A stretch of DNA of 64,000 nucleotides, taken from assembly GCA_965248265.1 (NCBI GenBank), contig CBDFJF010000002.1, positions 2,190,699 through 2,254,698 on the forward strand, written 5' to 3'. The notes under the pieces are model-generated. The model was given only the letters and a program-made list of their open reading frames with translations. It ran no database searches and was not told the origin of the DNA. Shown piece after piece: positions 51,982 to 64,000 of the stretch; the stretch's first letter is position 1; every line of letters begins with the position of its first letter. The stretch is from Candidatus Latescibacterota bacterium (GTDB lineage: Bacteria; Latescibacterota; UBA2968; UBA8231). The position numbers were made by a program, and so were the translations under genes.

Positions 51982-52420
51982 CTACATGGTCTTCTCGATT
52001 GCGGCCAGTAGCCTCATCAGTGCCAGCTCGATCGGCTGAATCACAGTTGTCGAGATCGGCGCGAAATTCGGTCGAAACGACGCAGGACTTTTGATACCTA
52101 CGACCTTGTACTCGGCCGGATCAAGACCCGTGCAGCAGTAGAGTCCGGATTCGCTGCACATTACAGGCCTCCGAGCCGCCAAAATATGAATGTTCCTGAT
52201 TCGGAGCACGACCGCACCGCCCATGTCCTGCTCGAGTCCTGTGAAGTACTTCAACAATGGCCGCCGCACGGAATGGACTGGTAAACCGACGATCGCAACC
52301 CTCGCCGAAAACAACCTGCGTCTTCTCGCCCAATTGGCTGCGGGCCGTCTGCTCCACCAATGCCAGATCGCACGTGAATACAAGCGACTTGGAGCGGATC
52401 CGGTTGAAAGCAGCCACTTC
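51982..52420 (-). CDS. hypothetical ORF, possibly a frameshifted gene fragment (the C-terminal ...TGLDPAEYKVVGIKSPASFRPNFAPISTTVIQ... is faintly MlrC-C-terminus-like)
   Basis: Protein-like sequence is split over two frames (track ORFs 52121..52417 and 51982..52506) with an apparent switch near 52290. It ends 9 nt before the aminotransferase start. Confidence 0.25.
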
Positions 52421-52504
52421 AGCGTATAGTTTGTGATGCTCGGCATGAATATATCAGATGCACAACATCCGGTCAGCCGATAGACATACATTCGAGGAGA
52501 GACC

Positions 52505-53227
52505 ATGCGGTGTATTTTCGCAGGTATCGAGTACGCGGGAAAATCGACGCTTATAGGGCTGCTCGCCCAGTACTACAAGAGGCGCGGCCGGCGAGTTCAC
52601 GCCGACGATCATTTCTCCATCCCGGATTCGACCTTGAGTCCCGACTCACAGGCGGCCATGGTGGGATACCCGCAGGATGTGAGGGAGCGCATGCAGCGCA
52701 TGCAGATCCAGTACCACATCGAAGTCATCAAGAATCACGAGAACGTGCTGCTAGGTGGATGGCACATCGAGGAGTACGTCTACTCTTCCGTCTACGGACA
52801 GGACCCGTCGAGTGCGTACTACCCCAACTATTCGTACGGCGTGCAGCGCGTGTACGAATCGCGCGTTCTGGAAGAACGCTTACCCGACACCGTCCTCGTC
52901 CACCTCAGCGCCAGCGACGAAGCGATCGTCGGGCGAATGAGAGGCCAGCCTCACCAATACCAAGTCATTCGAGAGAAGGACATCCCGGATTTGAAGAAGC
53001 GTTTCGATGAGGAGGTGGGACGCTCGCTTTTTTGCTGGGGTAACCGAAGACTCGACATGGATACGACGGACAAGACACCGCAGGAGTCCCTGGACGAGTT
53101 GCTAGAGCGCTCTGAACCACTCGTTACGGCCGGAGAAATCGCCATGCGGGCGCTGCCGGTTCCGGAGGGAGGCTTCGAGGTCCGCTACAGAGACGGCGTG
53201 CGCGAAGTCGTGCAGTCGAAAGCGTGA
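52505..53227 (+). CDS. P-loop NTPase / small-molecule-kinase-like protein
   Basis: An N-terminal Walker A motif (FAGIEYAGKSTLIG) begins 5 residues in. 240 aa. AT-rich upstream region with a GAGGAGAG RBS. Confidence 0.5.
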   Translation: MRCIFAGIEYAGKSTLIGLLAQYYKRRGRRVHADDHFSIPDSTLSPDSQAAMVGYPQDVRERMQRMQIQYHIEVIKNHENVLLGGWHIEEYVYSSVYGQDPSSAYYPNYSYGVQRVYESRVLEERLPDTVLVHLSASDEAIVGRMRGQPHQYQVIREKDIPDLKKRFDEEVGRSLFCWGNRRLDMDTTDKTPQESLDELLERSEPLVTAGEIAMRALPVPEGGFEVRYRDGVREVVQSKA

Positions 53228-53303
53228 TCGAATTGCCCGCTACTGATGGGACTGGTGCCCCAAAAATCAAAGGTCTTCAATTAAACGTTCTCCCGTCGCG
53301 CGC

Positions 53304-54137
53304 TCACTCTGCAAGATGCCGGAACAGGGGTTTCACCTCGTCGCTCAGCGCCGCGAAGACGTCCTTGGGAATTCGGGAAAGGTTCGCAGCCTTCCCTGCC
53401 CTCTCCACCACCATGCTCATGTTCTCGGGCGTACCCTCAATCTCGGGATTCAGATTGATCCACCAGGGTCCATAGCGGACCGAAATGGCGACGCGTGGCT
53501 CGGTGCTGCGGTTCGGCGCCACTGCGTGCCAGAGTCGGCTGTCATAGATCAAGACGCTGCCCGGATCGCCGGTAGCGGAAACCTCGGTGAGATATGGAGC
53601 ATCCCGATCGACGCCGTTGTCCCCGGAAGGGTTGTTGCTGGATCGATGGCTTCCAGGCACCAAGAAGGTGCCGCCGTTCTCGGCGTTGAATGGTGTCAGC
53701 ATCCAGATGGTGCTCAGATGCATCAGTGTGTCGGGATAGGGAGCCTCGATCCGTGCCGAGTTCGTCTGGTTGTAGGGCCAGTCGGCGTGCCAGTATCCGC
53801 GATCGTTACCTGGATGGGTGACGATCCCGCCGGCGCTCGAGATCCGCACGTCCGGGCCGAAGAAAGCCTCTGCCGTTCCGAGAACGCGGGGATCAGCCAG
53901 GTAGGCTGCGAATTCCTGAGTCGAGTTGATCAGAGACGTGCTGAAGGTGACCCCTTGAGCACCGACCCGATGTCCTTTGCTACGGATCTCTTCTTGGCGG
54001 CGCTGATTGATTTCTGCTTCACGCGCGTGGACTCGAAGCACACCTTGTTTGACACCATCGATCTGGTCGTCGGGAATGACGTCCTCGATCACGCAGAAGC
54101 CGTCCAGCTTGATGTGGTTTACTATGGTTTCGACCAT
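53304..54137 (-). CDS. phytanoyl-CoA dioxygenase (PhyH) family oxygenase
   Basis: 277 aa with jelly-roll His/Asp...His motifs (WHADWPYN..., ...LWHAVAPN). Confidence 0.75.
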   Translation of the reverse strand: MVETIVNHIKLDGFCVIEDVIPDDQIDGVKQGVLRVHAREAEINQRRQEEIRSKGHRVGAQGVTFSTSLINSTQEFAAYLADPRVLGTAEAFFGPDVRISSAGGIVTHPGNDRGYWHADWPYNQTNSARIEAPYPDTLMHLSTIWMLTPFNAENGGTFLVPGSHRSSNNPSGDNGVDRDAPYLTEVSATGDPGSVLIYDSRLWHAVAPNRSTEPRVAISVRYGPWWINLNPEIEGTPENMSMVVERAGKAANLSRIPKDVFAALSDEVKPLFRHLAE

Positions 54138-61865: not shown

Positions 61866-62624
61866 TCAGAGCTTCCCCTCCGCTTCCCGCTGGGCCGCAA
61901 GCTGCCTGCGGTAGGCATCCCGCCGCTGTGTGTCTATGATGGCGCGCTTTGCGTGATAGACAAAACCGAGTGCAGTTCGGGGCCGATCGCTGGGATTGGC
62001 ATCGGCGCGGTGGATGATCAAACTGTGGTGGACGATGAGATCCCCGGGCTCGACGATCATCGACACCTCGGCGGCAAAATCTTCATCGCCGAAATCCGTG
62101 ATACCCTGAGAGAACCCGATGACCCCGCTCCGTCTGTGAGGTCTCAAACCGCGCCGGTGAGAGCCTGGGATATAGCGGATGCAGCCATTCTCTTCGTCTG
62201 CGGCGTCGATCGCCAGCCACATCGTCAGCGCCTCGTTCGGCTCCAGCATGAAATAGAACCCGTCCTGGTGAGGCGGGGTCGCCTGGCCGATCCGCGGTGG
62301 TTTGCTCATCCACTGCATCGCCGACTCTCGGGCTCCGTCCAGGAGGTGATGGGCAAGTCCGAAGAACTGTTCGTCGTTGTAGAGCTCGTTGAAGTAGTCG
62401 TCGTGCTCCGCCATCGCGCTCAGGCGCATGATGGTCTCGGTATCGTCCTTGACTTCGTAGAACGCCTCGTCATTCGGCAGCCCTGGCAATACGTCGGTCA
62501 CGTAACGCTCGACATTTTCGCGCACCTGTGCGGTTTCCTCCGCACTCAAGTAGTTGCGCAGGATGATGTACCCATCCCGGTCGAAGTCCCGTTTGATCTT
62601 TTCTGCGTTCTGTTTCCAGTCCAT
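61866..62624 (-). CDS. phytanoyl-CoA dioxygenase (PhyH) family oxygenase
   Basis: MDWKQNAEKIKRDFDRDGYIILRNYLSAEE... ATG at 62624. Confidence 0.75.
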   Translation of the reverse strand: MDWKQNAEKIKRDFDRDGYIILRNYLSAEETAQVRENVERYVTDVLPGLPNDEAFYEVKDDTETIMRLSAMAEHDDYFNELYNDEQFFGLAHHLLDGARESAMQWMSKPPRIGQATPPHQDGFYFMLEPNEALTMWLAIDAADEENGCIRYIPGSHRRGLRPHRRSGVIGFSQGITDFGDEDFAAEVSMIVEPGDLIVHHSLIIHRADANPSDRPRTALGFVYHAKRAIIDTQRRDAYRRQLAAQREAEGKL

Positions 62625-62744
62625 AGCGATTCGCCTCTGCGATATTCTTGACCACATTATTTGCCTGAAGGTTGCCGAGTTGCTGCGTTTACGCAAACGC
62701 CGCGAGAAGAGGTCTCACTTGGTACTGTGCCGAGACTGCGTCAC

Positions 62745-62776
62745 TCTTGCTGGCGGAGCACAGTGGCTATAATACT
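62745..62776 (+). promoter_or_regulatory. candidate sigma70-type promoter (CTTGCT - 16 nt - TATAAT) for the 62861 gene
   Basis: cttgctggcggagcacagtggcTATAATact is read directly from the sequence. The divergent intergenic region (62625-62860) between the PhyH gene and the hypothetical gene is comparatively AT-rich. Confidence 0.3.
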
Positions 62777-62860
62777 CAGACGCGAGCGACGTACCGTGTC
62801 TGCCAAGCCGCCAGACGCGGGTCGTCGCAGTGGTTTTTACCAAAACAGCCGAGGTGTCCC

Positions 62861-63421
62861 ATGCTGAATGAATATCAGGAATTCAACTATCACACCATCA
62901 GAAGCTTCACCACGTATGCCTGCAAGGTGGACGACGACACCGTGGAGAAGGAGATCAGTTTTCACGTCATGCTAGGGCCCCACACCGAGCGCAAGCAGGA
63001 CACGTTTCCGGTTTACCGCATACCGGAAGGCAAGATGGTGTGGCTGAGCGACTGGTCGTTCAATGCGGGGAATGTCAAATGTCCCGAGCTCTCCGTCGGC
63101 GGCAGCCTCGGCCGAATTTGCGGTGAAGGTCGGTACATCTACGTCCTCAACTGTGCCCTGGAAGCCGGCGAAATGGAGATCTTCTCGCCAGCGCGATCGA
63201 TCCGCTACCTGGCCGACGAATGGTTGGCAGTATGCTTTCACCACATGGGGGTTCCCATGGATCTGGGTGTTCGCGCGACTTTCCGGTTCACGGAAGTCGC
63301 GGGCCCCGACAAACCCTTCGAGACCGAAACCTTCAACTGGCAAGCCAGGACTGAAAGTGAGCGCTTCCCTCCGGCACACATGGCGAAGACAGCATGTTAT
63401 CACCAGCGGGCTTCTATCTAA
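62861..63421 (+). CDS. hypothetical protein (186 aa)
   Basis: ATG 62861 with a GAGGTG RBS: [26 protein letters not shown]... The 63 codons upstream in the track ORF are low-complexity. Lower GC (~55%). No family recognised. Confidence 0.45.
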
Positions 63422-63736
63422 GACAGCTCGAGGGGAGTCAGGGCTTCGATCTCGGCGGCCTTGTCACTCTGCAGGCCAAGCCAAAAATCAGCGGGCATAC
63501 CAAGTAGCCGTGCCAGTCTGAGCGCTGTATCGGGCGTTACCGAGCGGCGAGCCTTGATGATCTCATTGAGACGAGGAAAGGATACGCCAAGACGAGCGGC
63601 GAAGGCCGTCTGCGTGATGCCGAGAGGCTCAATGAACTCCGCCCGCAGCATCTCTCCCGGATGGGTCGGCGCGCGTTCGCTAGGCAGGCGGCGCGAGACA
63701 GGCGCGTTTGCCCGCTTAGTGGTAGTCGATGATCTG
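63418..63736 (-). CDS. higA: HigA-family antitoxin (XRE-type HTH)
   Basis: [98 protein letters not shown]... is a near-consensus HigA (PGEIL.EEFLEP.G.SQ..LA..LGV...R.NEI..G.R.ITADTALRLA..FG....FWLNLQ). The GGAGG RBS lies inside the 3' end of higB. Confidence 0.7.
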
Positions 63737-63978
63737 GACTTCGTACGCATGGCCATCCTCCCACGGAAACAGATACGATATTGTTGGTTGATCCGAATGC
63801 TGTATTGACCCCGACGATCTCCACGCAGCGACTCAAGTCGGTTCCTGGGAGGAATCGATAGATGTCGAAGATCCCGAATCCGATTGATCTGATCGAGTTT
63901 ACGTCGCGCAGTTGTCCATAGCGTGGATGGACAGACGGCACGTGCTGCCCGTGAGTTTCGAGAATGCGTCGTCGACAA
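63696..63978 (-). pseudogene. higB: higB (RelE/ParE-superfamily toxin) with a 1-nt frameshift
   Basis: The frame from TTG 63978 reads ...[46 protein letters not shown]. The conserved HigB C-terminus [15 protein letters not shown] is present but in the -1 frame, ending at TAA 63698-63696. One base is missing relative to an intact ...RICFRWEDG... junction near 63741-63746, so the track reports a single 186-aa HigB'-HigA fusion ORF. Confidence 0.55.
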
Positions 63979-64000
63979 CGCTTCTCGTTGTAGAACTCGA

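Follow-up and report, generated by a model that had tools for sequence, protein, structure and literature searches.

A decayed higBA toxin-antitoxin fragment whose frameshifted toxin remnant mimics a HigB-HigA fusion in a Candidatus Latescibacterota genome

Type II toxin-antitoxin modules can lose the toxin and retain the antitoxin, and this is a well-documented fate (PMC7354431). The remnants have been proposed to persist as neutral sequence, as regulators, or as anti-addiction factors (PMC7354431). Within the HigBA family, Pseudomonas putida GraT that lacks its first 22 residues (Delta22-GraT) is non-toxic and leaves mRNA uncleaved, and helix alpha5 of the antitoxin GraA is the dimerisation unit (PMC6393540). 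In Proteus vulgaris HigB, D90, Y91 and H92 are critical for activity (PMC5027501). The HigA of Pseudomonas aeruginosa is an autorepressor that also regulates other genes, such as mvfR (PMC6987408). Here we describe a higBA locus close to one end of a 64,000-nucleotide stretch of DNA from a Candidatus Latescibacterota bacterium (GenBank assembly GCA_965248265.1, contig CBDFJF010000002.1, positions 2,190,699 to 2,254,698), hereafter the window, whose own numbering is used throughout. A previous sequence-only reading had proposed that a single-base deletion inactivated higB at this locus and produced a HigB'-HigA fusion reading frame. We find an ordinary, multiply damaged and decaying relic and not a novel fused gene. 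Window positions 63406-63960 on the minus strand are very probably a ~555-bp fragment of a GraTA/PaHigBA-type type II toxin-antitoxin cassette that lies at a synteny break.

The identity of the module is well supported. The minus strand between 63380 and 64000 carries HigB-like and HigA-like coding sequence in different frames. Once one base is repaired, the HigB part matches Pfam PF05015 (HigB-like toxins; GraT/PaHigB subgroup of RelE/ParE) with an E-value of 9.5e-15 and 55.3 bits (cut-off 27), and the match spans profile positions 21-91 of 91. On NCBIfam TIGR02607, for which the cut-off is 47.7 bits, the HigA part scores 95.6 over profile positions 2-72 of 81, and it also matches Pfam HTH_3 (E 3e-11). 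These matches bear out the earlier assignment to a higB-higA module. Using eight intact homologues of 97 amino acids as queries, tblastn placed HigB residues 17-81/82 at 63960..63763 (E 1e-32 to 1e-40), with 68-82% identity over residues 17-81. The adjacent frame held residues 81-97, at 63769..63719 (E ~1e-8). The two HigB blocks in different frames, which the sequence-only reading had also noticed, are real and far beyond chance.

The closest relatives were recovered from a large protein database, in which a search with HigA returned two proteins, P0179 and P0180, that equal the window HigA save for ten additional residues. Their contigs, L168 (1761 nucleotides) and L169 (685 nucleotides), are independent metagenomic sequences from different samples, and both have ~97% nucleotide identity to the window. 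L168 aligns to window positions 63960..63408 with 16 mismatches and two gaps. Exact look-ups of the neighbouring hypothetical protein of 186 amino acids and of PhyH returned no match. Scans of GTDB genomes and JGI metagenomes gave no identical locus and a best HigA of 78% identity, and the closer copies on L168 and L169 came from the large protein database only. L168 encodes an intact HigB of 97 amino acids with a GTG start, preceded by TTGCCA-N17-TATAAT with the hexamer 7 nucleotides before the GTG. On L168 (positions 3-715) and on an SRR22804949 contig, the intact higBA adjoins a VapC-like PIN-domain gene and its small partner. Close relatives thus carry higBA within a cluster of toxin-antitoxin modules, a context that is missing from the window.

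Comparison with these relatives locates the frame change at a single base. At the junction, L168 and L169 both read TTCCGTTGGGAGG and the window reads TTCCGTGGGAGG. The minus strand of the window has TTCCG-TGGGAGG at this point, and one T of a TT pair has been lost at 63763, where L168, L169, L001 and L002 all carry TT (CGT TGG). On the plus strand the missing base falls within CCCA-CGG (63760-63766), hence in a TT dinucleotide outside any long homopolymer. The sequence-only reading had placed it at ~63740-63746, about 20 nucleotides away. Frameshift-aware alignment to a HigB family profile, built from 145 ungapped homologues of 97 amino acids, assigned a one-base loss to codon 82 under all four penalty settings. 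The intact junction that the sequence-only reading had predicted, ...RICFRWEDG, is exactly what L168 encodes.

The one-base loss puts the last 15 HigB codons, including those for the D-Y-H motif, out of frame, and codons 17-82 join the HigA frame. The higB remnant of codons 17-82 occupies 63763..63960 on the minus strand and lies in the higA frame owing to the missing base. Codons 83-97 and the TAA stop (63718-63716) occupy 63716..63763 on the same strand, overlapping the first 11 higA codons. The D-Y-H motif is still encoded, at 63727-63719, in a frame that differs from that of codons 17-82. D95, Y96 and H97 are kept in 143, 145 and 143 of the 145 homologues, respectively. These three residues correspond to D90, Y91 and H92 of P. 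vulgaris HigB.

The apparent fusion follows from the way in which the two genes overlap. Intact relatives have a higB/higA overlap of 38 nucleotides with higA in the next frame. The higA start thus lies inside higB. In 88 of 104 intact loci its ATG occupies one common place in the overlap, taking in bases two and three of higB codon 87 and base one of codon 88. The sequence TGGGAG(G/A), which derives from codons W83-E84, sits at the Shine-Dalgarno position in 72 of the 104. Because the overlap is 38 nucleotides long and out of frame, a one-base loss just upstream of the Shine-Dalgarno sequence causes the higB codons to fall into the higA frame. The resulting open reading frame (ORF) of 186 amino acids (63418..63978, minus strand) consists of a TTG start, non-HigB residues, HigB residues 17-82, a GRMA linker and HigA. 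Its TTG at 63978 is a mechanical start, being simply the first start codon after a stop. It was previously described as beginning at the HigB N-terminus, yet the first 16 HigB codons are absent from it. The fusion frame itself does exist as had been noted, with no sign that it is translated, and it would appear to be a geometric by-product of the frameshift and no designed gene. An independent higB remnant was observed in an Acidobacteriota metagenome-assembled genome (L015:9935-10038), where a 5' truncation is accompanied by the loss of one base from the G-run in the W83 codon region. As this remnant likewise lies in the higA frame, the same pseudo-fusion arose more than once.

The missing base is not the only lesion in higB. 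Starting at position 63960, which corresponds to higB codon 17, and continuing downstream, the window is ~97% identical to L168, whereas across 63960/63961 the identity drops to noise. Scored on the family profile, the 13 in-frame residues expected as HigB positions 4-16 obtain -41.8 bits, which is the mean of random 13-mers from the window, whereas the family median is +39 and the family minimum -22.6. By comparison, the central block of higB scores 201 bits against a family median of 210. An anchored frameshift-aware test of the 40 nucleotides upstream of 63960 gave a result no better than random 40-mers (P 0.3-0.6), and the L168 control scored +33 bits. Judged by its sequence, the window higB is without promoter/operator, GTG start and codons 1-16. 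The 40 nucleotides that are not higB (63961..64000, minus strand) run from this 5' breakpoint of the cassette fragment to the end of the window. They were also considered as a mutated HigB N-terminus with a 4-nucleotide insertion and a 5-nucleotide deletion, a possibility suggested by the strings 'EFYN' and 'VVDDAF' in other frames, by gaps in a MAFFT alignment and by profile-alignment paths. This candidate was rejected. The single-segment P values of 0.004-0.02 hold before multiple testing only, the anchored score is random-like, and identity to L168 collapses and does not hold near 97%. Comparison of 63961-64000 with the window and all fetched loci, as a possible insertion sequence (IS) end or repeat, gave chance matches only.

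A third lesion lies in the core of the toxin. The near-invariant PPGNRLE motif reads PPRNRLE in the window, where codon 55 (63844..63846, minus strand) is AGG for Arg and the corresponding codon of L168 is GGG for Gly. Position 55 of HigB is G in 137 of the 145 homologues, A in six and R in none. No active toxin would be expected to come from the window higB. Restoring the single base would probably leave the toxin dead as well, since the N-terminus is missing and a core motif is damaged by G55R. The earlier proposal that higB is a pseudogene is therefore upheld by the 5' truncation, G55R and the out-of-frame D-Y-H. Its view of the single-base deletion as the sole inactivating event gives way to one in which the truncation and G55R also contribute, and in which higA carries a 30-nucleotide deletion of its own.

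Regulatory sequences of the family are also missing. The family promoter CGTTATAAT, which ends 7 nucleotides before the GTG, is absent upstream of the window higB, as far as 64000. No sigma-70-like site was found on the minus strand between 63200 and 64000 in a scan limited to the sigma-70-type consensus, and no HigA operator-like motif was found anywhere in the 64-kb window. Among 106 intact higBA relatives (loci L001-L160 and L168:770-819), a TATAAT-like hexamer ends exactly 7 nucleotides before the higB start in 87, and the higB start codon is GTG in 90. In many cases this hexamer takes the form CGTTATAAT and is preceded, at a distance of a few bases, by an inverted TATAACG half-site, and the operator region of L168 reads TTCCGTTACCCGTTATAAT. 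On this arrangement, higB looks as though it is translated from a leaderless mRNA and higA from a strong internal Shine-Dalgarno sequence, which would be a plausible built-in way to keep the antitoxin in excess.

The antitoxin gene has fared differently. The higA coding sequence (63418..63750, minus strand; ATG at 63750-63748, TAG at 63420-63418) encodes an HTH-XRE antitoxin of 110 amino acids, and its ORF is intact. It keeps its own signals: GGGAGG at 63762-63757, built from higB codons W83-E84, lies 6 nucleotides upstream of the ATG at 63750, which is at the family-typical position. The gene has nevertheless lost 30 nucleotides in frame, equivalent to WDLWHAMHSD or half of helix alpha5, the long C-terminal helix of the five-helix HigA domain, and all relatives keep these residues. 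Across 87 homologues, W-D-L-W-H-A from this block shows a conservation of at least 90%. In L168, AGTGAC direct repeats stand on either side of the deleted block, and the deletion junction in the window (63463..63469, minus strand) retains a residual AGTGAC, or one repeat copy. Repeats in this arrangement are the hallmark of a deletion by slippage or microhomology. In the AlphaFold model of intact HigA, the deleted block makes up the second half of a helix at 87-104, with a predicted local distance difference test (pLDDT) score of ~90. In the model of the window HigA, this helix is reduced to 87-92 and the pLDDT drops to 64 and then to 51. Outside the ten-residue gap, the window HigA protein is identical to P0179 and to the HigA of L168.

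Taken together, these lesions very probably mark a cassette fragment at a synteny break in which several independent events, loss of the higB 5' end, G55R and loss of one T, have left a dead toxin. Loss of the T just upstream of the W83-E84 Shine-Dalgarno sequence would have merged the higB remnant with the higA frame, and a deletion between the AGTGAC repeats would have removed the alpha5 residues of HigA.

The status of higA is less settled than that of higB. Compared with L168, higA has six synonymous and no nonsynonymous differences (pS, the proportion of synonymous differences, 0.067). Over codons 17-81, higB has four synonymous and five nonsynonymous differences, with a ratio of nonsynonymous to synonymous proportions (pN/pS) of 0.46. 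The contrast between the two genes is significant (Fisher P = 0.044). Neutrality would give ~17 nonsynonymous differences in higA, and none was observed. Scaled instead to the three higB replacements that appear to be derived in the window (P32T, V44I and G55R, polarised heuristically by family consensus only), the expectation is about five, and the probability of observing none is ~0.006. This pattern suggests that higA was under purifying selection while higB was already decaying. If higA is transcribed, it would be from a foreign upstream promoter, and its product would be at most an orphan and possibly crippled repressor or antitoxin.

The alternative that survives best, and to which we give only a little less than an even chance, is that both genes are dead, the alpha5 deletion having abolished HigA dimerisation and the promoterless fragment being neutral junk. 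This is a sub-variant of the decaying-cassette explanation and differs from it in the status of higA only. In its favour, the ten deleted residues are near-invariant, the AlphaFold model loses alpha5 along with C-terminal confidence, and alpha5 is the unit through which GraA dimerises (PMC6393540). The sigma-70-type scan of the minus strand between 63200 and 64000 also gave no promoter-like site, and the native promoter/operator is absent. The six-to-none excess of synonymous differences in higA speaks against it, given the replacements expected under neutrality or at the higB rate. That rate, however, depends on the heuristic polarisation, and the deletion may be very recent. A second and more tentative possibility is that an orphan HigA with a shortened alpha5 has been kept by selection, either as an anti-addiction factor against incoming HigB toxins or as a stand-alone repressor. 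It is raised by the zero against six differences in higA while the adjacent higB gained replacements. Were it so, the upstream in-frame HigB remnant would merely be tolerated.

It is unlikely that the missing T at 63763 reflects a sequencing or assembly error and that the organism has an in-frame junction. The site adjoins a GGG/CCC run, and several of the related contigs are named as by long-read assemblers. However, the lost base is in a TT dinucleotide, and random indel errors must be rare, as 10 of 11 neighbouring genes are clean. These ten genes (~11 kb of coding sequence) give full-length Pfam matches with no frame breaks, so the assembly is not generally indel-ridden. The 30-nucleotide higA deletion between direct repeats corresponds to no error type. 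Even with an in-frame junction, the start, the promoter and codons 1-16 of higB would be missing and G55R would remain, so the verdict on the toxin would be unchanged.

Several points nonetheless weigh against the interpretation of the locus as a damaged cassette fragment with a dead toxin. A single missing T could still be an artefact. The ancestral state was deduced from relatives that are themselves ~3% diverged. The window ends 40 nucleotides past the 5' breakpoint, and those 40 nucleotides may be a contig-end or chimeric artefact. The negative promoter result for the minus strand covers the sigma-70-type consensus only. The absence of nonsynonymous differences in higA attests to past purifying selection and falls short of proof that the gene functions now, and what the alpha5 deletion does to HigA is a prediction.

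An expressed and functional HigB(17-82)-HigA chimera, for example a tethered decoy or regulator, is very improbable. Frame 1 is indeed open from the window end to the higA stop. Inactive toxin-antitoxin pairs with regulatory roles have also been reported, such as MtvT/MtvA (PMC11826091). Set against this, the putative chimera has no recognisable start, Shine-Dalgarno sequence or promoter, the native ones having been lost, whereas higA keeps its Shine-Dalgarno sequence and ATG. Its HigB part is under relaxed constraint (the pN/pS given above) and has a damaged conserved motif. Further, the HigB Pfam domain occurs in none of the best 120 HigA homologues.

Three database proteins of 192 amino acids (P0180, P0183 and P0186) were examined as candidate conserved fusions and rejected, being higA calls that run on over an intact higB in another frame. 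The 72 residues at their N-terminus come from an open alternative frame of the intact higB and contain no HigB sequence. Database 'HigA' proteins of 192 amino acids (on L168, 860-1438) are gene-caller artefacts, in which the higA frame is open across higB and the call has been stretched 72 codons upstream.

Programmed -1 ribosomal frameshifting that still yields a full-length-type HigB and sets the toxin:antitoxin ratio is scarcely credible. A tRNA-Phe that moved from UUC to UUU in a -1 slip at U-UUC-CGU would reach the HigB C-terminal frame. However, the site does not form a canonical X-XXY-YYZ heptamer, and the junction is in frame in the nearest relatives and in 104 of 149 family loci. The five residues most often found at position 82 do not include Pro, and higB has no N-terminus or start in any case.

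The surroundings of the fragment are consistent with a decaying, acquired cassette. Convergent to higA is a conserved hypothetical gene encoding 186 amino acids (62861..63421, plus strand), the stop of which overlaps the higA stop. Its product has 58 homologues (best 95% identity) and no Pfam or PADLOC family. The nearest genomes with this gene (L161-L166) share 95% nucleotide identity with the window over 62801-63389, and in these genomes the hypothetical gene is followed by a major facilitator superfamily (MFS) transporter gene, with no higBA. The window ceases to resemble L161-L166 at 63389, and its resemblance to the L168 cassette stops at ~63408, leaving a junction segment at 63390..63407. 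The higBA fragment therefore lies where synteny is broken and is bordered on either side by foreign sequence, which gives indirect support to a cassette that was acquired and then eroded.

The other genes in the 14 kb to the left of higBA have ordinary metabolic and transport products: an aminotransferase, two PhyH dioxygenases, a short-chain dehydrogenase/reductase (SDR), an aldo-keto reductase, a GGDEF protein, a sulfatase, an FGE-sulfatase and an MFS transporter. No mobile-element genes were found in these 14 kb of the window beside higBA. Neither a second higBA copy in the window nor tRNA genes nearby were found, and a PADLOC scan gave only weak HTH matches for HigA. Searches with the 555-bp fragment returned distant matches only among plasmids (70-78% identity, three plasmids) and no phage relatives. 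The sequence-only reading had called the locus a decaying mobile remnant. The synteny break lends this indirect support, while the mobile part of the claim finds neither a mobile-element gene in the 14 kb nor a close plasmid or phage match.

Some further features of the neighbourhood were observed. The hypothetical gene has lost its ancestral stop, which is TAG in relatives and AAG at 63386-63388 in the window, exactly where similarity to relatives ends. It extends 11 codons further, to a TAA at 63419-63421 that overlaps the higA TAG at 63418-63420. Compared with window positions 61866-63389, the related genomes L161-L167 are rich in IS elements (DDE_Tnp_1_4, IS1595 and IS66). Their MFS genes are split, their PhyH genes are broken into fragments, and a BNR_2 gene separates PhyH from the hypothetical gene. 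In the window, PhyH is intact (61866..62624) and BNR_2 is absent there. An unannotated stretch at L163:13807-14028 holds a further, incomplete copy of the hypothetical gene's 3' part with 77% identity, and equivalents occur in L162, L164 and L165. Elsewhere in the window, an ORF of 174 amino acids (51982..52506, minus strand) matches the MlrC C-terminal domain only. All three minus-strand frames of 52380-53330 contain 7-11 stops, and no MlrC N-terminal ORF is readable (locus 51982-53303). From its sequence, the 51982..52506 ORF may be another gene fragment.

Toxin decay is not confined to this locus. We surveyed 160 loci with higA relatives, of which 149 were assessable. A full-length, single-frame higB was present in 104 loci, and a further 7 had a nearly full-length higB with a diverged or short N-terminus. 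Only a 3' remnant of higB was left in 18 loci, always the part that carries the higA start. Internal stops were found in 4 loci, higB was split across frames in 3, and no HigB similarity was detected upstream of higA in 13. Overall, a decayed higB beside an apparently intact higA was found in ~17% of the 149 assessable relatives. For instance, L002, the second-closest genome match, retains HigB residues 77-97 only.

Beyond correct annotation, the locus itself matters little. It is best annotated as a higB pseudogene fragment together with a higA that has an internal deletion, and as neither a toxin-antitoxin system nor a novel fusion protein. More generally, one-base indels and gene callers readily yield artefact HigB-HigA or long 'HigA' ORFs (186-192 amino acids), because higA starts 38 nucleotides inside higB in another frame that is often open across higB. 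The survey also provides a usable figure for how often a decayed toxin stands beside a retained antitoxin in this family.

Amongst known systems, P. putida GraT-GraA (HigBA family; 6F8S, 6F8H and 6FIX) is the best solved-structure match for both window proteins, with an E-value of 5e-18 for the toxin against GraT (6F8S_B) and 1e-15 for the antitoxin against GraA. As in GraTA, the toxin gene lies upstream of an HTH-XRE antitoxin gene, and the toxin belongs to a family with PPGNRLE and C-terminal DYH motifs. Unlike GraT, the window toxin lacks the N-terminus that GraT needs, has its catalytic C-terminus out of frame, and carries G55R. The antitoxin GraA is fully folded and has a long dimerising helix alpha5, half of which is deleted in the window HigA, and the window copy, unlike GraTA, has no operator or promoter. 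P. aeruginosa HigB-HigA (6JPI, 6LB3 and 7CSV) includes a HigA of the same subfamily (E ~1e-15). Regulation of other genes, as performed by that HigA, is the kind of role that an orphan HigA could keep. However, the P. aeruginosa module is intact and functional, and the 64-kb window has no HigA operator-like site. The closest parallels in terms of decay are degraded type II loci such as the Klebsiella orphan antitoxins, the Shigella yacB frameshift and the Caulobacter parE pseudogene (PMC7354431), in which, as here, the toxin is broken and the antitoxin ORF persists. The window locus differs from these in that its antitoxin also has an in-frame deletion, and in that the out-of-frame overlap of its two genes mimics a gene fusion.

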